From the NCBI GenBank assembly GCA_027491355.1, contig JAIXWI010000015.1, positions 34,588 to 98,587 of the forward strand: DNA of 64,000 nucleotides, written 5' to 3'. Source of the stretch: Bacteroidota bacterium (GTDB lineage Bacteria > Bacteroidota > Bacteroidia > UKL13-3). Numbering within the stretch: position 1 is the stretch's first letter; each line of letters begins with the position of its first letter. Shown piece by piece: positions 729 through 13,903 of this stretch. The translations under genes and the position numbers were made by a program. The notes under the pieces were generated by a model. It had not been told where the DNA came from, searched no databases, and worked only from the letters and a program-made list of their open reading frames with translations.

Positions 729-1436
729 ATGACACAGACAAACCTGCAAACCCAACAATTAGAGAACACTTTTCAAACATTGGTTCAAACAAAGCATTTA
801 TTAGCAAAAGCCCACTCAAGTTTAAATTGGGGTTTTGTAAAAACAGCTATTCAGCTTTGTAATGCTTATCTTTTATTTAATCCCGAACACTTAGAAGCAA
901 AATTACTCAAGGCGTATTGTTTATTAAAGAGTGATGAATTGAAGTCTGCATTTAATTTATTTTTTAAACTGAATCAGGTGCACCCAAATTCATTACCCTG
1001 TTTAATAGGTTTAGCCCAATTTCATTTGTACAATGAAAATTATGAGGTAGCTGAACCTTTGTTGTTAAAAGCACTTTCAATGGGGAGAGATGCTTACGCA
1101 AAATCAGAAGTAATAGAAATTCTTGCACAATCATACTTAGACAAAGGAAACCCTAAATTGGCATTGAGAACAATTAATGAAGCAATTGAAATCTTGCCAT
1201 TTGAACATTCCAGCCACCATTTACATGGTGCAATTTTAATGGAAATGGGCAATTATACTGAAGCCAAGAGAAGTTTTGATATTGCAATACAACTCAATAA
1301 AGATGCCGCAGAATCATTCAGAAAAAGAGCCAAATGTTGGATGATGTTGAATAAAGTTGAATTTGGTTTACTAGATATTAAAAAAGCACAAAAAATAGAG
1401 CTTGAAAGGTGCAAGTTTTTAGAAGCATTTGAATAA
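729..1436 (+). CDS. tetratricopeptide-repeat protein (hypothetical)
   Basis: 235 aa with repeated A/L/Y-rich 34-residue helical-pair pattern (LKAYCLLKSDELKSAFNLF..., ALRTINEAIEILP..., AKRSFDIAIQLNKD...). No signal peptide. Confidence 0.5.
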   Translation: MTQTNLQTQQLENTFQTLVQTKHLLAKAHSSLNWGFVKTAIQLCNAYLLFNPEHLEAKLLKAYCLLKSDELKSAFNLFFKLNQVHPNSLPCLIGLAQFHLYNENYEVAEPLLLKALSMGRDAYAKSEVIEILAQSYLDKGNPKLALRTINEAIEILPFEHSSHHLHGAILMEMGNYTEAKRSFDIAIQLNKDAAESFRKRAKCWMMLNKVEFGLLDIKKAQKIELERCKFLEAFE

Positions 1437-1618: not shown

Positions 1619-2008
1619 ATGAATATGATTCGCCTTTTTATATTTTTAGGAATTGCATCGATTTTAATGGTGGTTGCTTGCAAAAGAACCAGCATCGAAA
1701 AAAATGGAGAAATACAGCCCCAACAAAGCTTCGGTGAATTAAAAACCGCAGGTCAATTTAATTGGAATACCAACTCCGAGTTAACCTTGCTGTTTTTAGG
1801 CAAAAACAACGACCCAAGAATTGCAGCACTCAAATTAATAGACAATAACGGAAGAGTTTATTTCCAAAGACTCCAGCGAGCAAAAGAAAACTTCCAAACA
1901 AAAATTCTGATCCCTTCTCACGTACAAAATTTAAGGTGGAGTTTTGCGGGTCAATTTCAAAATTTTAATCCAAAAACAGGTAGAATTGTTGTAAGTTTGC
2001 AACCTTAA
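1619..2008 (+). CDS. small lipoprotein, uncharacterised family (paralog A of 9194..9583)
   Basis: 129 aa. Signal peptide with lipobox (ILMVVAC). Shares length and ordered motifs (FNW-T, K-ID-G-F, IL/VP-H) with the ORF at 9194..9583. It sits 21 nt upstream of the LruC gene on the same strand. Confidence 0.5.
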   Translation: MNMIRLFIFLGIASILMVVACKRTSIEKNGEIQPQQSFGELKTAGQFNWNTNSELTLLFLGKNNDPRIAALKLIDNNGRVYFQRLQRAKENFQTKILIPSHVQNLRWSFAGQFQNFNPKTGRIVVSLQP

Positions 2009-2029: not shown

Positions 2030-3409
2030 ATGAAAAATCAAAGGATCATACAGATTTTTAGAAGTTTTACAGCCCTATTGTTAGTATTTATTGCTGGCAG
2101 GGCTGCTTCACAACCTATATTTACAGACAATGTTACAGACTCGGTGTCAATTACCTACCCAACGGTAGGAGCAAGCAATCCTAGTTTTGTGTATACCAAT
2201 TCTACAAGCATAACAATCAAATGGACTCCTGGAAACGGATCCGGAAGAATTGTATTGGCTTCAACTGATTCTACCATAAACGCCTGGCCCGCTGATAAAG
2301 CCTCTTATACTGCAAATGCAACATATGGCTCAGGTAGTTCTATAGGTAATGCTAAAGTGTTGTATACAGGAAATGGGGATTCTGTTAGCATTTCCAATTT
2401 AAACTCAAACGTGAAATATTATTTTTGGATTATTGAATACAATACCATTGGTTCATTCAACTATTTCGATACACAATATTTTCTAAGAACCTCAACATAC
2501 ACTACATTGCCTGATGCTGATGGTGACAATGTGCCAGATATAGACGATGTTTTTCCCTCAGATCCTTTGAGGGCATTTGTAACAACATATCCACCTTCAG
2601 GTTTTGGAACATTGCTTTTTGAAGATTTATGGCCAGGTATAGGAGATTATGATTTCAATGATCTAGTTCTTGATTACAATTACAGTATCGTTTCAAACGG
2701 CGACAACAATGTTGTTGAAGCAGATTATACTTTTGTTACCAGAGCAATAGGAGGAGATTTACACAATGCTTTCGCATTCCAATTAGATGGTGTAAATCCT
2801 GATAAAATTACCAATGTAACAGGTGCCAATACTGCTGGTGTTACATGGACAACATTCAATCCTAATGGTACTGAATTTGACCAACCCAATCATGCCAATA
2901 TTATCGTTTTTAAAGATGCTTACGATTTGCTGCCAACCTCTGGCGGTTATTGGTTTGTTAATGTAGACCCCAACGCGCCAGATGTAGGAACTGATACGAC
3001 AAAAATACATCTAACTTTTATTGACAATGGAACAGTGCCTTCAGGTGGTACCGTTTCAACAACAATTATGGACGCTGCAGCTTTTAATCCATACATTATT
3101 GTCAACCAACAAAGAGGTAAAGAAATTCACCTTGCTAACAAAATTCCTTCAGACAAAGCAAACTTAGGATTCTTTGGTACCGTAAACGACAATTCTGTTC
3201 CAGGAATAGGCAGGTATTACAAATCACACAACAACCTGCCTTGGGCTCTGGACATCAATACATCTATACCTTACACCAAAGAGAAAGTTGATTTTTTACA
3301 AGCGTATTTGAACTTTTCAATTTGGGCTCAAAGTAATGGCTTAAGCAATCCAGACTGGTATATTGATATGCCGGGTAATAGAAATTCTTCTAAACTAATT
3401 ATTCGCTAA
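2030..3409 (+). CDS. LruC-domain-containing secreted protein
   Basis: 459 aa with N-terminal signal/TM. It has a DADGDNVPDIDDVFPSDP thrombospondin-type-3-like Ca-binding motif followed by FEDLWPGIGDYDFNDLVLDY. I recognise this as the LruC-domain signature of Bacteroidota/Leptospira proteins. Assignment is by motif memory only. Confidence 0.55.
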   Translation: MKNQRIIQIFRSFTALLLVFIAGRAASQPIFTDNVTDSVSITYPTVGASNPSFVYTNSTSITIKWTPGNGSGRIVLASTDSTINAWPADKASYTANATYGSGSSIGNAKVLYTGNGDSVSISNLNSNVKYYFWIIEYNTIGSFNYFDTQYFLRTSTYTTLPDADGDNVPDIDDVFPSDPLRAFVTTYPPSGFGTLLFEDLWPGIGDYDFNDLVLDYNYSIVSNGDNNVVEADYTFVTRAIGGDLHNAFAFQLDGVNPDKITNVTGANTAGVTWTTFNPNGTEFDQPNHANIIVFKDAYDLLPTSGGYWFVNVDPNAPDVGTDTTKIHLTFIDNGTVPSGGTVSTTIMDAAAFNPYIIVNQQRGKEIHLANKIPSDKANLGFFGTVNDNSVPGIGRYYKSHNNLPWALDINTSIPYTKEKVDFLQAYLNFSIWAQSNGLSNPDWYIDMPGNRNSSKLIIR

Positions 3410-3447: not shown

Positions 3448-6400
3448 ATGAAAAAAACACATATACAAAACATGTATTTGTACAAAAAAAGTATAGCACT
3501 GCTAATGATCTTGTTATTCTCAGGAATACAATTTGCATTAAAGGCTCAAACTGCTATTACTCCAAAACATACAGGTACCCTGTCAACATTTTCTTCCATA
3601 TGGACAAGTAGTGGTGTCAATCAAGGAGTAACTGGGAGCAATGATTACCTTGTTTTGAATACAAACAATGCAAGTTTACAAACACCAAATTTAGATTTCA
3701 CAGGCAAAAGAGCCATCGTCTATTTACAATTAAAAGCAGAAACAGGAATAACAAGTCCAGCTATATTATCGATTGAAATTTCAACAAATGGTGGCGCAAG
3801 CTGGGATAACTTAGATGAAGTTTTTGCTGCAGATGAAACATTTTCAACTATTGTAGTCAATGCCAGTGCCTATACAGGTTCTCAAAATATCATCCGTGTC
3901 ATAACCTATACCAATACTGTCAACAATGCTATTGGCCTAGACGATATAACAGTAATAGGGTATGATGAACCATCAACTCAGGCGAGTTCGCTTCAATTTT
4001 CTTGTTTGAACAATAAATCTGTTAGAGTTAGTTGGACCAAAGGTAGCGGGTCAAGAACTGCTGTATTTATGTTAAGAAGTTCTTCTGCAGGTGTTCCTAA
4101 TATTGAAGATGGATTGACTTACAATGTATCTAGTCCTAAAGGAATCAATACAACCAGAGGTAGTCAGTTAGGAGCAAGTGGTTACTACTGCGTTTACAAT
4201 GATACTGGTAGTACTGTTTTAGTTGGCAATTTAAACGCCAATTCCAAATATTGGTTTAGAGTTTATAGTTATTCTTGTGACAGTATTGTATCAGAAATTA
4301 CAATCAATTACAATTCTACAACAGCAGCGTCAAACCCTTCTAGTTACACAACAGCAGCTACTGCGACAAGCTTTCCACTGCCAACTTTAACTGACTTGAA
4401 TGCCTCAAATATTACAACAACTGATGCGATTATTTCTAGTAAGCTAACCGCAAGCGATGAGTGTGATCCTGCAATGTCAAAAGGTTTTGTATGGTCTGAA
4501 ACAAATGTGAATTCAAATCCTTTAATTGGCGGTACTGGAGTTACGAGAATTGTAATTTCCAATCCCGATACTGGATCATTTGGAACAACATTTACAGGTT
4601 TACCTTCAGGTATTTCAATTTCATACAAATCTTATGGTTTAACGCTGAATTCCAATGCTGGCTACTTCTCAACAGGTACTTTTACAACATTGGCACTTCA
4701 GCCAACAATTGCATCCTTAGGTTTACAATTTTCAGCCATTGACACCAATAGCATTCAATTGACTTGGACAAAAGGTAACGGAGCAAAAAGAATAGTAGTG
4801 GCTAGACCATTTGGATCTACCCGATTTGCACCAAGTAATGCAACAGGATACTCAGTTAATAGCAACGCGTACTCAGATTTACTCAATTCAACTACTGGAA
4901 CAAACAATAAAGTTGTTTTCAATGATACAAGTTCAAGTTTCACGTTAACCGGATTGAACCCTGGTACCATTTATGAGTTTGATGTATATGAGTACAATGG
5001 AGACAATGCCAGCGCAAATTACGCAACAAGCTTTTTGAATGGAAATCAATCAACGCTTGCCAGGCAACCTTTGCCTGCTACAAACATAGTTTTTACAAAT
5101 ACCACTGATTCGAGTACCTTGGTTTCATGGACCAACGGTACTGGTTTGAATAGGATTTTAGTAGTAAGATTGGCGAGTACACCTAAAGCAAATCCGACCA
5201 ACGGAACTGCTTATCCCGTAAACAGTGCTTCATTTTCTGATGTTCCTAATTTTTTAACTGGTGCAGGGAACTCTGGAAACGTAGTTGTATACAATGCAAA
5301 TGGCTCTAGTGTAACAGTTACTGGATTAACCAGTTCAACTGCATATGCTTTTGATATTTATGAATACAATGGTAGCGGTGCAACCATTAATTATTCAGCT
5401 GCATTAACTGGTAACAAAACAACATTAAGCGTTGCACCAACATTAAAAGCAAGTGCAATTGTTTTTGGAACAATCACTACCAACAGCATACAAGTTTCAT
5501 GGACCAATGGAAATGGCAACAGACGTATAGTTGTAGCCAGACTTAGTAGTTCAAACAGAACAGCACCTAGTCATTCTGTTGATTATTTTGTTAACTCAGC
5601 AGCATTCTCTGATTTTTCAAATGATTCAACTGGTATCGGAAATAGGGTAGTATATGATGGGAATGGCCAAACGGTAACAGTAACCGGTTTGAGTACTGGA
5701 ACATCTTATACATTTGATGTATATGAATACAATGGCACCGGTAACAGTATAGCTTATTCAGATGTGTTCAATGCGAGCAGAACAACACTTGCAAATCAAC
5801 CTACTGTTATTGCCAGTAACTTAAACTTTAGTAACATCACACAAAGTAGTATGACTTTGGCCTGGACCAATGGAAATGGAAGTGGAAGAATAGTGGTTGC
5901 AAGAGACATCAACACATCCAGAACATCACCTACAAATGCTACACAATACAATGTAAACAGTGCTTCCTATTCAAACTTAAACAATGATACAACTGGAACA
6001 GGTAATATTGTTGTTTACAACGGAACGGGCTCAACTGTTAATGTAACAGACTTGATACCTGTAAGCAGGTATGCTTTTGACATTTATGAATACAATGGTA
6101 GCGGATTATCAACCAATTATTCAAGTAATTTAAGTGGAAATGAAATGACTTTAGATGCTGAACCAAGCAATCAAGCATCAAACATTCATTTTACGAATAT
6201 TACCAAAACAAGCTTTACAATTAATTGGAACAAAGGTGCTGATGCTGATTTTTCAATGGTAATTGTAAAAGCTGGTGCTCCGGTTGATGCATTTCCTTCA
6301 GATGGAGCTAATTATTTGGCAAGTGCAATTTTCGGCAATGGAAATGAACTTGGTTCAGGCAATTACATAACATACATGTCTTCTGGAAATACAATGAACC

Positions 6401-9144
6401 TCTCTGGTTTAACAGAGGGAGTTACCTACCATGTGGCTGTTATTTCTTACAATGCTTCAAACGGTACTTTACATAACTATCAGTTGGACAGTCCAGCAAC
6501 AGGTTCACAAGCAGCACAAAGGGCTACTTTTTATTCAAAAGGAAGCCTAAATCCAGAAAGTTTGACAAGCTGGACCAGCAATAGAGCTGGTACTGGAACC
6601 AATCCATTAGCATTCAATTCTGCCGATAATGAATTCATTATTCAGAATGGACATACCATGACAACAGCATCTAGTTGGAGTTTTGGATCAAATGGTAGTT
6701 CAATTTTAACAATTGAAAATGGCGGTGTTTTAAAAGCAAACCACCCAATTTTAATAGCAGCATCAGATTCTTTTAAATTAGATAACAATGCTAGATACAT
6801 TCATAACCATACAGGTTCATTTACTAGTGGCATTCTAAATGGTAAAGAATTGTTTGATGCCAATAGTATTTTTGAAGTACAAAATTCTCCAAGTATTGGT
6901 CCAAATCAACCAAGTTCAGGATTTGGTCATTTGGCCATCAATATGAATACAGACCCAGGCTATTCAATTCAAATGGGCGGAGGCACACTCCACATTCGTG
7001 GAAATTTTGAAATTCAAAATTTTCCATCTAACAGAGATTGGCAGTTTACCAACAATGCACCTTTGAATTTAAGTATAGATGGTGATTTAAACATTGCAAA
7101 TGGAGGTTTGGATTTTGCATCACAGTCAGGAAATGCCTTTGTAATTGCATCTATAGGAGGCAACTTCATACAAACAGGCGGAACCATCAAGTCTAGTTCG
7201 TCTACAGCCTTGAATTTAAGCTTAATAGGTTTTAATAATAACATTTCTATAACCGGTGGAACTTATCTTCCAAACAATATAAACATTGGCATTGGCATTA
7301 GTGCCACATATACTTCAATGTCTAATTTGAGTTTAGGTAGCTCTAAAAGTTTAACTGTTGATGGCGTTTTAAAAATGGATACTTATCAAATTATTGCAAA
7401 TGGAAACAATGCTTCCATTATTGTCAATGGTACCATTGAAACTGCAGATACAAATGGATTAACTGATCGAGCAAATACATGTATTTCCAACATAAATAAC
7501 CCAAGTGTTGTCATCAACGCTGGTTCAATTATCAAGTACAATGCCAATAGCAATCAATTGGTATCAGCGCGTGCTGATTATGACAATATAGAAATATCAG
7601 GTTTTGGATACAAATACTTGGATGCTGGATTTAGATTAACTTTTAGTGGCAATTTGTCTACCAATGATGCTTTAGTGTTGAAATCTGATGCTTTAGGTAC
7701 AGCATCAATTGGAGAATTACCAAATACAGCCAGCATAACAGGAAAAATCAGCGTAGAAAGATTCATACCTGCAAGAAGGGCCTATCGTTTTCTATCTAGT
7801 CCGGTAACTACATCTGATTACATTATAAACAATTGGCAAAATGGGGCATTCATTACAGGTAATGGAGGAACTGACAACGGATTTGATGTTGGAAACCTTC
7901 AAGGACTTCAGTTCCCTTCTATGTTTACATTAAATGCGACATCACAAGCATGGGATTCTATTCCAAATACAAATGCAACAAACTTAGTTCAGGGAATGGG
8001 GTATAGGATGTTTGTAAGAGGAGATAGAACCATAGATTTAAACTCAAACAATGCCACCCCAACAACAACTATTTTAACAGCAACCGGAACGCATACACCT
8101 GGCGATAAAACTTTCAACACCAGTTCAATTCCAGCTTTGAGCAATCAATTTAATGGCTATACAATGATTGGAAATCCTTTTCCGTCAGCAATTGATTGGA
8201 ACAATGTAACCAAGTCTAATGTGTCATCAAGTTATTGGACATGGCGAGCGCAGGGTGGAGCAAATAACAGAGGTGCTTATGTGAATTACAATGCAAGTGG
8301 TATGATCAGCTCTGATGGGAATGTGAACAAGAATATTGAGTCAGGAAGCGCGATCATTGTTCAAACTTCTGGAGCAAACCCTTCTTTGACCATTAAAGAG
8401 TCAGACAAGACCGCTGCTATGCAAGGCTCACAAATACTTGGAAAATCAGCTGCAGATCAACTGTTAAGAATAACTGTAAATGAAGATGACAGTATTTTTG
8501 CAGATGGTTTGGTTATTTATACAACACCTGAAGCACAAAATACATTCGAAACTTTTGATACAGAAAAATGGATCAATCCCGGTTTTACAATTTATTCTCT
8601 TACAAGTGATAATAAAAAGGTTTCTATTCAAGGAGTTCCTGCTTTTGTTAACCAAAGAAACATTCAACTTGGAATAGAAAAAACTGAAAATAGAACTTAT
8701 ACCATGCAATTTAGTGGAATGGCTTCGTCTGATTTTAAAGTGGAATTATTGGATAAATTTTTAGGAAAGTCAGTAGATATTAGCAAACAAGATGCCTATA
8801 AGTTTGATGTAACTTCTGATATTCAATCTAAATCAAATGATAGGTTCAACTTGGTTTTCACAACAAATAGTACAGGCTTAAACATTGCCGAAATGACCAA
8901 TCAGTTGTCGCTTTATCCAAATCCTGCAAACAATGAAATATATTTGAGTTTGTTGACATCTAATGCTCAATTGTGCACTGTTGAAATTAGCAATCAAATT
9001 GGCCAAGTTGTTTATGCAGGCATGTTAGATTTTATAGAAAACAAAACACAGCGAATCAACATAGATGACATAGCCGCAGGTATTTATGTGGTAAATATTT
9101 CGAGTAAAACCGGATTTTATCAAAAAATCAAGTTCGTTAAATAA
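3448..9144 (+). CDS. giant T9SS-secreted cell-surface protein (1898 aa): N-terminal beta-sandwich domain, 6 Fn3-like repeats, Gly/Asn-rich beta-helix-like region, type-A T9SS C-terminal sorting domain
   Basis: Signal peptide (LLMILLFSGIQFALKAQ). Repeated ~122-aa units (SIQLTWTKGNG..RIVVAR....YEFDVYEYNG). A central region rich in G/N/S/T with repeated 'GG' turns, consistent with a beta-helix. The C-terminal 80 aa (LSLYPNPANNEIYLSL...GIYVVNISSKTGFYQKIKFVK) match a Por_Secre_tail CTD. Uninterrupted 5.7-kb ORF. Confidence 0.8.
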   Translation: MKKTHIQNMYLYKKSIALLMILLFSGIQFALKAQTAITPKHTGTLSTFSSIWTSSGVNQGVTGSNDYLVLNTNNASLQTPNLDFTGKRAIVYLQLKAETGITSPAILSIEISTNGGASWDNLDEVFAADETFSTIVVNASAYTGSQNIIRVITYTNTVNNAIGLDDITVIGYDEPSTQASSLQFSCLNNKSVRVSWTKGSGSRTAVFMLRSSSAGVPNIEDGLTYNVSSPKGINTTRGSQLGASGYYCVYNDTGSTVLVGNLNANSKYWFRVYSYSCDSIVSEITINYNSTTAASNPSSYTTAATATSFPLPTLTDLNASNITTTDAIISSKLTASDECDPAMSKGFVWSETNVNSNPLIGGTGVTRIVISNPDTGSFGTTFTGLPSGISISYKSYGLTLNSNAGYFSTGTFTTLALQPTIASLGLQFSAIDTNSIQLTWTKGNGAKRIVVARPFGSTRFAPSNATGYSVNSNAYSDLLNSTTGTNNKVVFNDTSSSFTLTGLNPGTIYEFDVYEYNGDNASANYATSFLNGNQSTLARQPLPATNIVFTNTTDSSTLVSWTNGTGLNRILVVRLASTPKANPTNGTAYPVNSASFSDVPNFLTGAGNSGNVVVYNANGSSVTVTGLTSSTAYAFDIYEYNGSGATINYSAALTGNKTTLSVAPTLKASAIVFGTITTNSIQVSWTNGNGNRRIVVARLSSSNRTAPSHSVDYFVNSAAFSDFSNDSTGIGNRVVYDGNGQTVTVTGLSTGTSYTFDVYEYNGTGNSIAYSDVFNASRTTLANQPTVIASNLNFSNITQSSMTLAWTNGNGSGRIVVARDINTSRTSPTNATQYNVNSASYSNLNNDTTGTGNIVVYNGTGSTVNVTDLIPVSRYAFDIYEYNGSGLSTNYSSNLSGNEMTLDAEPSNQASNIHFTNITKTSFTINWNKGADADFSMVIVKAGAPVDAFPSDGANYLASAIFGNGNELGSGNYITYMSSGNTMNLSGLTEGVTYHVAVISYNASNGTLHNYQLDSPATGSQAAQRATFYSKGSLNPESLTSWTSNRAGTGTNPLAFNSADNEFIIQNGHTMTTASSWSFGSNGSSILTIENGGVLKANHPILIAASDSFKLDNNARYIHNHTGSFTSGILNGKELFDANSIFEVQNSPSIGPNQPSSGFGHLAINMNTDPGYSIQMGGGTLHIRGNFEIQNFPSNRDWQFTNNAPLNLSIDGDLNIANGGLDFASQSGNAFVIASIGGNFIQTGGTIKSSSSTALNLSLIGFNNNISITGGTYLPNNINIGIGISATYTSMSNLSLGSSKSLTVDGVLKMDTYQIIANGNNASIIVNGTIETADTNGLTDRANTCISNINNPSVVINAGSIIKYNANSNQLVSARADYDNIEISGFGYKYLDAGFRLTFSGNLSTNDALVLKSDALGTASIGELPNTASITGKISVERFIPARRAYRFLSSPVTTSDYIINNWQNGAFITGNGGTDNGFDVGNLQGLQFPSMFTLNATSQAWDSIPNTNATNLVQGMGYRMFVRGDRTIDLNSNNATPTTTILTATGTHTPGDKTFNTSSIPALSNQFNGYTMIGNPFPSAIDWNNVTKSNVSSSYWTWRAQGGANNRGAYVNYNASGMISSDGNVNKNIESGSAIIVQTSGANPSLTIKESDKTAAMQGSQILGKSAADQLLRITVNEDDSIFADGLVIYTTPEAQNTFETFDTEKWINPGFTIYSLTSDNKKVSIQGVPAFVNQRNIQLGIEKTENRTYTMQFSGMASSDFKVELLDKFLGKSVDISKQDAYKFDVTSDIQSKSNDRFNLVFTTNSTGLNIAEMTNQLSLYPNPANNEIYLSLLTSNAQLCTVEISNQIGQVVYAGMLDFIENKTQRINIDDIAAGIYVVNISSKTGFYQKIKFVK
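4699..6159 (+). repeat. 4 in-frame tandem repeats of 366 bp (122 aa Fn3-like unit) inside the giant gene; diverged copies at ~3967-4329 and 6160-~6520
   Basis: Unit boundaries at 4699, 5065, 5431, 5797 and 6160 are exact 366-nt steps (the last is 363). They share DNA strings such as tttga(t/c)(g/a)t(a/t)tatga(g/a)tacaatgg and caa(c/t)ggaaatgg. Protein units start QPTIAS / QPLPAT / VAPTLKAS / QPTVIAS. Confidence 0.8.
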
Positions 9145-9161
9145 AGATCTTATCTTTGACA

Positions 9162-9199
9162 CCATAAAAAAAAGACCGATAACGGTCTTTTTTTTATGG
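9162..9199. terminator. bidirectional rho-independent terminator between convergent genes
   Basis: Perfect 38-nt palindrome ccataaaaaaaagaccg-ataa-cggtcttttttttatgg. The stem is flanked by an A8 run and a T8 run. It lies between the stop of 3448..9144 (+) and the stop of 9194..9583 (-), and overlaps the latter stop codon. Confidence 0.6.
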
Positions 9200-9583
9200 T
9201 GTAATATTTATCAACTTAGAATTGGGCGCAAGGGACTTAGTAACAATTTGGTTTCCTACTTGAACTACCAGCCTTGTTTCATGAATGGGAACCAGCACAT
9301 CTACATCGAAATGCTTTGATAAATCATGATTTTTTGAGAATAGGATATTGCCTTTGACATCTTTAATTGCAACAATCCCTATGCTATTTGCCTGTAAATT
9401 AGGCGTGTATTTAAATTGTATTTTTTGGTAGGTAGACCAATTAAAATCACTGGATACCTGCATTTTGTTAAATTCTGTGGCCCGTTGATTGCGCTGAACA
9501 ATGTCTAGCCTGTGTTTGTTACAAGATGCAACAAGCAATGCAATAGTAATTGTTGACAATGGTATCTTTTTGAAAATGGGCAT
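9194..9583 (-). CDS. small lipoprotein, uncharacterised family (paralog B of 1619..2008)
   Basis: 129 aa with lipobox (ALLVASC). Same length and motif order as 1619..2008, roughly 25% identity by eye. Convergent with the giant gene. Confidence 0.5.
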   Translation of the reverse strand: MPIFKKIPLSTITIALLVASCNKHRLDIVQRNQRATEFNKMQVSSDFNWSTYQKIQFKYTPNLQANSIGIVAIKDVKGNILFSKNHDLSKHFDVDVLVPIHETRLVVQVGNQIVTKSLAPNSKLINITP

Positions 9584-9642: not shown

Positions 9643-9670
9643 AGTAAAAAAAATCCCGGAGTACCGGGAT
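9643..9670 (-). terminator. rho-independent terminator of ferredoxin gene (minus strand)
   Basis: atcccgg-agta-ccgggat stem on the plus strand, preceded by A8. On the minus strand the stem is therefore followed by U8. The stem abuts the ferredoxin stop at 9670-9672. Confidence 0.45.
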
Positions 9671-10014
9671 TAAAGATGCATTCTGTTTTTCTTTTCCAAC
9701 AAGACCTCGTTGGTTTCAACATTGTCAGGATCCGGCACACAACAATCTACCGGGCATACAGCAGCACATTGGGGTTCTTCGTGAAATCCAACACACTCTG
9801 TACATTTAGAAGTTACAATGAAATAAGTATCATCGCTCTTTGGAGAAAATCTTTGGCTTACAGAAATGGCTTCACCATCAATATCAATGGTACCACTTAA
9901 GTTATTTCCATCCGCCCATGCCCACTCTGCACCAGCTTCATAAATTGCATTGTTTGGACATTCAGGCTCACATGCACCACAATTGATGCACTCATCAGTT
10001 ATCATTATTGCCAT
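9670..10014 (-). CDS. 4Fe-4S dicluster ferredoxin
   Basis: 114 aa with [12 protein letters not shown] and [24 protein letters not shown] cysteine motifs. Confidence 0.8.
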
Positions 10015-13818: not shown

Positions 13819-13819
13819 G

Positions 13820-13903
13820 TGCCGTGAAGGAGACTCGAACTCCTATACCCTTGCGAGTACCACCCCCTCAAGATGGCGTGTCTACCAATTTCACCACCAC
13901 GGC
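13820..13903 (-). tRNA. tRNA-Leu (anticodon GAG)
   Basis: The reverse complement folds as a cloverleaf: GCCGTGGTGGTGAAATTGGTAGACACGCCATCTTGAGGGGGTGGTACTCGCAAGGGTATAGGAGTTCGAGTCTCCTTCACGGCA. It has a 7-bp acceptor stem, 3-bp D stem, anticodon loop TTGAGGG (anticodon GAG), a long variable arm, a GGAGTTCGAGTCTCC T-arm and discriminator A. No CCA is encoded. Confidence 0.85.

Follow-up and report, generated by a model that had tools for sequence, protein, structure and literature searches.

A small lipoprotein family encoded beside or fused to LruC domains in Bacteroidota includes a candidate detached lipid anchor

The window analyzed here, a 64-kb stretch of Bacteroidota DNA, contains two short genes, copy A (1619..2008, plus strand) and copy B (9194..9583, minus strand), in a block that also encodes an LruC-domain protein and a giant T9SS protein. 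The ORF of a TPR protein (729..1436; Pfam/NCBIfam scan) lies ahead of A, separated from it by a 182-nt intergenic stretch (1437-1618), and at the equivalent place in related loci a 41-aa ORF is called (L001 17993-18118). A is followed on the plus strand by the gene for the 459-aa LruC-domain protein (2030..3409; TIGR04456 E = 1.8e-65, PF16130 E = 4.4e-50), which is ordered as a leader, an FN3 passenger with a weak fn3 match, a Ca-binding-like DxDGD stretch and a C-terminal LruC/DUF4842 domain, the last scoring 221.5 bits against a cut-off of 36. Its N-terminus, MKNQRIIQIFRSFTALLLVFIAGRAASQP, is a signal-peptidase-I type leader without a Cys or a lipobox. The same strand then encodes an 1898-aa FN3-repeat T9SS protein (3448..9144) with five Pfam fn3 matches, Por_Secre_tail (E = 1.2e-10) and TIGR04183. 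Farther along, a single tRNA-Leu(GAG) gene lies on the minus strand (13819-13903), and Rfam returned no family at gathering score anywhere in the 64 kb.

Only 21 nt separate A from the LruC gene and 38 nt the LruC gene from the giant gene, and no convincing terminator was found in either gap. Between the stops of the convergent giant gene and B sits a bidirectional intrinsic terminator (9159..9202). It is a perfect palindrome, its stem measuring up to 20 bp, with flanking A- and T-runs, and its right arm overlaps the last three codons of B (Thr-Pro-stop); a second terminator hairpin, 3' of the ferredoxin gene (9652..9671, minus strand), sets B apart from the upstream minus-strand gene. The short gaps and the hairpins around B thus point to A as the head of an A-LruC-giant operon and to B as a separate unit: co-transcription of the A, LruC and giant genes is probable, and B, with hairpins on both sides, is predicted to form its own transcription unit. 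A sigma-70 promoter scan performed no better than shuffles (33 found versus 33.9 expected), and the Bacteroidota TAnnTTTG -7 motif gave relaxed matches only, upstream of A and B. The first-pass annotation had described the two copies as bracketing a giant adhesin; they do lie at the ends of the block, but the LruC gene separates A from the giant gene, and A and B therefore bracket LruC plus giant and not the giant alone.

Both 129-aa ORFs and both lipoboxes called in that annotation were borne out. Substrates of signal peptidase II were recognized by a positively charged n-region, a hydrophobic h-region and a lipobox of the form [LVI][ASTVI][GAS]-C, and such leaders are present in A (MNMIRLFIFLGIASILMVVA-C21) and B (MPIFKKIPLSTITIALLVAS-C21), with hydrophobic stretches running into V18-V19-A20-C21 and V18-A19-S20-C21, respectively. 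PF08139 also matches B weakly in Pfam (E = 0.02). From leader and lipobox, A and B are predicted to be lipidated, and we treat both as lipoproteins. The start of A is ambiguous, with in-frame ATG codons at 1619 and 1625, and several orthologues are called from the second (127 aa). Beyond the lipobox (VVAC) and Cys21, A continues with a flexible linker of ~25 aa and a 7-strand beta-sandwich at residues 52-127; B has a leader, lipobox (VASC), Cys21 and a 7-strand beta-sandwich as in A. The fold is modelled as an Ig/transthyretin-like 7-strand beta-sandwich, with pLDDT ~90 over residues 50-120 in the AF2 model of A; the models of A and B share one shallow alignment of 8-9 sequences and have a mean pLDDT of 72-74. 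Sequence searches of the PDB with A, B and the family profile returned nothing significant, the best hits being signal-peptide matches and CueP (4gqz, E = 0.03).

A and B are homologous. Their full-length Smith-Waterman score is 90, compared with 27.2 +/- 4.7 in 2000 shuffles (z = 13.5), and without the signal peptides it is 77 against 26.7 +/- 4.8 (z = 10.5), a value reached by 0 of 2000 shuffles; BLASTP aligns 86 aa at E = 1e-8. The score thus stands far above the shuffled controls that had been proposed as the check, and the homology holds. Identity is lower than the ~25% first estimated, at 22 of 129 positions in a gapless global alignment (17%) and 20% in the local one. Among the motifs that had been pointed out, FNW(N/S)T at 47-51 and (I/V)L(I/V)PxH at 96-101 are present in both copies, but the K-(L/I)-ID motif is one residue out of register: within the middle block D75, G78 and F82 align, while KLID at 72-75 of A stands opposite AIKD in B. 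No third copy was found within the 64-kb window by tblastn or a two-sequence HMM. These results support the earlier description of A and B as anciently diverged lipoproteins of one family that are too unlike to serve as a recombination substrate.

How far that family extends was determined by profile searching. A word-indexed homologue search recovered seven close relatives of A and three of B, which form two clean clades in a gapless alignment with 12 invariant columns. An exhaustive profile search among 1.84 billion proteins then gave 330 cluster representatives at E <= 1e-3, nearly all of them 120-140 aa long and matched over their full length, and A and B both fall in this one widespread family (128 bits for A and 107 bits for B against an 80-sequence family HMM). 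Cys21 and F47 never vary in the 80-sequence alignment, and conservation is at least 90% at W49, T51 and P99; a lipobox is recognizable in 115 of 135 small members, with a conserved C-K-K-(D/E/Q)-L after it. Neither A nor B was assigned to a family by Pfam or NCBIfam, and public sources annotate the members only as 'hypothetical protein'. By profile similarity, therefore, A and B are members of a Bacteroidota family of predicted lipoproteins of ~130 aa that is widespread, unnamed and uncurated. Separately, positions 37-84 of the family profile match five to seven times each in the giant proteins P0036, P0057 and P0072, which consist of Ig repeats of the ASH / Cep192_D4 / HYDIN type, a hint that this repeat class and the module are remotely related.

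Three longer proteins of 445-476 aa (P0098, P0116 and P0131) matched the family profile library-wide at E = 3e-8 to 4e-7. Each is a fusion in which a leader, a lipobox and the family module precede a DUF4114-like region and DUF4842. To survey this link, we scanned for LruC domains in one genome per species, confirmed 487 and kept the best 80, corresponding to 79 loci, all from Bacteroidota; these are the ones most similar to the LruC domain of the window and not a random sample, and many derive from related MAGs. Six-frame ORFs of the 79 loci were searched with the module HMM and an LruC-domain HMM. Membership in the module family was defined by a full-length profile match of ~110 aa after the lipobox together with F-x-W-x-T and P99, a definition that A and B both fit. 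Excluding the window's own orthologues and requiring at least 2 kb of upstream sequence, we found that 65 of 70 independent LruC domains are immediately preceded by a co-oriented module, fused in 31 and encoded as a separate gene in 34. Nearly all of the 74 module matches in 1.10 Mb sit at the position ahead of LruC, and since the matches are nearly confined to that position, the remaining flank of each locus serves as an internal control. In three of the five exceptions the module lies immediately downstream of LruC (L007, L025 and L037), and in the other two (L045 and L050) the LruC proteins are lipoproteins themselves. The co-occurrence with LruC genes that had been proposed for statistical testing is thus strong for A, which precedes its LruC gene by the 21-nt gap, but does not extend to B, which has no LruC gene downstream and lies on the opposite strand, 5.8 kb away and with terminators on both sides.

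The position of the lipobox follows the same division. In each of the 34 fused LruC proteins the leader is followed by a Cys, whereas the LruC proteins of split loci have an AXA-type leader and no lipobox (40 clear cases, 2 false regex flags and 1 ambiguous, L021). Searching in the reverse direction, from small proteins picked across the E-value range, we found an LruC gene whose product has a non-lipoprotein leader 5-38 nt downstream of each of P0029, P0070, P0051, P0099 and P0140; this accounts for five of five informative cases, the sixth contig being too short to judge. A neighbour-joining tree of LruC domains requires at least four changes between the fused and split states, and the link between module and LruC has therefore survived repeated rearrangement. 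Nor do split loci look like a fused gene simply cut in two: their LruC proteins have gained a leader of their own and, in many cases, another N-terminal domain.

Several of the surveyed loci have features of their own. L007 (CANHRW010000012.1, 5912-7208) is a second LruC locus of the MAG that holds L005, an orthologue of the locus in the window, with the small gene of L007 immediately 3' of LruC, and the order is likewise reversed in L025, where the LruC gene comes first and the small lipoprotein gene after it. Tandem arrays of small-lipoprotein/LruC gene pairs occur in L017, L018, L027, L029, L034 and L086. One of these loci, L027 (CAZGVO010000008.1), is titled 'uncultured Bifidobacterium sp.', but its layout and protein N-termini match those of L029 (Bacteroidetes bacterium RE-27jun17-99), and it is probably a mislabelled or contaminated bin.

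In split LruC proteins the passenger domains vary while the C-terminal LruC domain stays constant. The passengers include Ice_binding (PF11999, L015), pAdhesive_15 with FN3 (L013), Big_9/cadherin (L023 and L040) the FN3 part of the window protein and several unannotated modules, a variety in keeping with the DUF4842 domains reported to lie behind ice-binding domains in sea-ice bacteria (PMC9957290), and it suggests that the LruC domain may act as a constant C-terminal docking module. An unannotated N-terminal module of ~190 aa that starts 'LNCESGNRAIEQGNCW' recurs in L024, L035, L042, L027, L029, L034 and L088. Varied N-terminal regions were also noted in the LruC genes of L051 and L053 and in that of the window (2030-2500).

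Because the module is either fused to LruC or encoded just upstream of it, A most likely anchors the LruC protein and not the giant adhesin. Our main reading, to which we assign a probability of roughly 60% on the strength of the observed homology, fusion, adjacency and complementary lipobox distribution, is that A is a detached lipid anchor of the neighboring LruC protein, that B is a second, separately descended member of the family, and that the adhesin is not their client. The A gene would most likely be co-transcribed with the LruC gene, and A, once exported, would be lipidated at Cys21 and become part of the outer membrane. The LruC protein, with its FN3 passenger and C-terminal LruC domain, would be Sec-exported in a soluble, non-lipidated form. 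We infer that the beta-sandwich of A physically binds this protein and so tethers it to the outer membrane. A and LruC would then make up in two chains the architecture that other species make as a single chain. A separate module gene immediately upstream of an LruC protein that has lost its lipobox is found in roughly half of the LruC loci sampled.

On which face of the membrane this would take place is indicated by two lines of evidence that point in different directions. In Capnocytophaga, Bacteroides and Flavobacterium the surface-export signal of lipoproteins is C-X-K-(D/E)2-X right after the lipidated Cys (PMC5080379), a rule whose transfer to the present organism is an extrapolation. 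A begins its mature part with C-K-R-T-S-I-E and B with C-N-K-H-R-L-D, neither having two consecutive acidic residues at +4/+5, a feature confined to 17 of the 135 family members. Proteins of the LruC type are known to be lipoproteins of the outer membrane (PMC9901810, PMC8280789); Leptospira LruC has been assigned to its inner face (PMC9901810), and LIC13086 is described as an outer-membrane protein that binds host components (PMC8280789). By analogy, the missing export signal and the location of Leptospira LruC suggest that A would act on the periplasmic face, while the types of passenger, ice-binding and adhesin-like, suggest that a surface function may be served, and the host-component binding described for LIC13086 stands on that side too.

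Two other accounts of the small lipoproteins have to be weighed against a tether. The first-pass annotation found the pair reminiscent of chaperone/usher-like or anchor/cap arrangements, in which A and B would be accessory lipoproteins of the giant adhesin that assist or hold a surface fibre. What speaks for this is that A and B stand at the two ends of a block containing the 1898-aa adhesin and that the A-LruC-1898 aa-B layout recurs with identical gene lengths in L001, L002 and L006 (L003 to L005 are truncated); a T9SS (CHU_C) adhesin also follows a small-gene/LruC pair elsewhere, in only two related Cyclobacteriaceae loci. L001-L006, however, also have the TPR, ferredoxin, LuxC-like and arginase genes on their flanks in common, and with all surrounding genes shared in one narrow clade the conserved layout amounts to a single phylogenetic observation. 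Among the 54 independent loci whose sequence continues for at least 3 kb past LruC, only 6 have a same-strand ORF of at least 800 aa there, and most of the neighbors checked are housekeeping genes (they include Ile-tRNA synthetase, a TPR protein, an oxidoreductase, an S8 protease, a histidine kinase and an OmpA-family protein). The T9SS sorting domain gives the giant protein its own route of export and attachment, and that domain (PF18962/TIGR04183 or CHU_C) was found in the 1898-aa protein only, not in A, B or the LruC protein. Pfam and NCBIfam scans returned no PapD-like chaperone or usher domain either. The family tracks LruC, at 65 of 70, and not large adhesins, so that an accessory role for A and B at the adhesin is highly improbable, having been largely refuted by the survey, and the giant T9SS protein is best regarded, on comparative gene order, as a clade-specific neighbor that is neither a client nor part of the conserved module. 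Across the clade it is kept at 1898 aa with 77% identity (3448-9144 versus L001 10435-16131), its least conserved block (60%) being the T9SS sorting domain in the last ~100 aa. The other account accepts the tie to LruC but makes the small lipoprotein a periplasmic factor for assembly, folding or transport, or a transient inhibitor or regulator. Genomic linkage would fit such joint functions equally well; a transient factor, however, would hardly be expected to be permanently fused to the N-terminus of about half of the LruC proteins, nor to hold the only lipobox of the pair in strictly complementary fashion, and we consider this account unlikely.

A detached anchor for the LruC protein explains A; B breaks the adjacency rule, and the tether model consequently leaves half of the original observation unexplained. 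All four loci that reach the site of B (the window, L001, L002 and L006) have the gene, no other locus of the sample does, and its distal, inverted and separately terminated position is unique to this clade among the sampled loci. Its best matches outside its own clade are P0029 (56 bits) and L017 (49 bits), compared with 42 bits for the best A-type protein. A local inverted duplication was rejected, as each copy scores higher against other family lineages than against the other copy; being nearer to other members than to each other, A and B are separate lineages. The old duplication claimed at the outset thus stands as common descent from an ancient family, but not as local copying of A from B or the reverse. 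B is the fastest-evolving gene of the locus, with 56% identity to its L001 orthologue (A, 70%; LruC, 87%; ferredoxin, 96%) and the highest dN/dS of the locus between L001 and L002 (0.171, against 0.088 for A). At 0.09 and 0.17, both A and B are under purifying selection. B as a decaying relic was rejected on its dN/dS and conserved length. It therefore appears, from its matches and distribution, to be a conserved orphan member of the family, separately descended and kept only in this narrow clade. That B was severed from LruC, as the survivor of a pair whose LruC gene was lost, and now has another envelope function or is drifting, is quite possible though not what we favor: no LruC gene follows it, terminators flank it, its lineage differs from that of A, it is confined to this clade and it evolves faster than any other gene of the locus. 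Yet a dN/dS of 0.17, the exact length of 129 aa and the retention of the family-invariant F47, W49, T51 and P99 argue for function within the constraints of the family. Moreover, two small genes precede one LruC gene in L019 (copies 55% identical) and L091 (35%), which makes a second anchor a recurring arrangement, and because that arrangement recurs elsewhere, B is, by analogy, probably an additional or alternative anchor.

A broader generalization, which we offer tentatively and regard as rather doubtful, is that the small lipoprotein and the LruC/DUF4842 domain form a general two-part envelope-anchoring system of Bacteroidota. The LruC domain would be a docking tag behind interchangeable passengers (FN3, ice-binding DUF3494, ice-binding-like adhesive, cadherin/Big_9 and several unannotated modules), with the small lipoprotein as a membrane receptor dedicated to it and extra paralogues such as B providing alternative anchoring sites or stoichiometries. 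If true, two-part anchoring would be the first function for the long-uncharacterized DUF4842.

LruC/DUF4842 proteins are widespread and include Leptospira vaccine candidates and sea-ice ice-binding proteins. What is new here is that the lipidated N-terminal module of LruC proteins is a discrete family of at least 330 sequence clusters for which there is no curated model, and that the module, which carries the lipobox, occurs interchangeably as a fusion or as a separate upstream gene. This offers a testable hypothesis for how LruC proteins are held at the membrane, gives a name and a context to hundreds of 'hypothetical' 130-aa lipoproteins and would justify a new Pfam or NCBIfam model.

Compared with known systems, the pair differs clearly from chaperone/usher pili, for which we required one cluster to encode both a PapD-like periplasmic chaperone with two domains and an outer-membrane usher of ~800 aa. 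PapD_N, PapD_C and Usher had no Pfam match in A, B, the LruC protein, the giant protein or the TPR protein. Unlike such systems, A and B are single-domain and predicted to be lipidated, with 108 mature residues, the block lacks a barrel gene of usher size (~800 aa), and it is LruC, not fibre subunits, with which the family is associated. A and B were also compared with the small lipoproteins that serve type VI secretion at the outer membrane (TssJ / Lip / VasD), and neither TssJ/SciN sequence membership nor a T6SS gene neighborhood was found. The closest counterparts are the single-chain LruC/DUF4842 lipoproteins (TIGR04456, PF16130), represented by Leptospira LruC, LIC13086 and the 'putative lipoprotein' of PDB 3oqq. 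The ~240-aa LruC/DUF4842 domain itself was found in neither A nor B, at E <= 1 in Pfam/NCBIfam or with the LruC HMM, and resides in the neighboring protein (2030..3409). The N-terminal module of the Bacteroidota single-chain proteins (P0098, P0116, P0131 and 31 loci) is homologous to A and B and has in common with them the leader, the lipobox, the FxW.T motif and the predicted beta-sandwich. Unlike the single-chain form, the window has its module and its LruC domain on two polypeptides, the LruC protein having a non-lipoprotein leader. We therefore see in A and its neighbor no new mechanism or kind of system but what appears to be a two-gene form of the known LruC lipoproteins.
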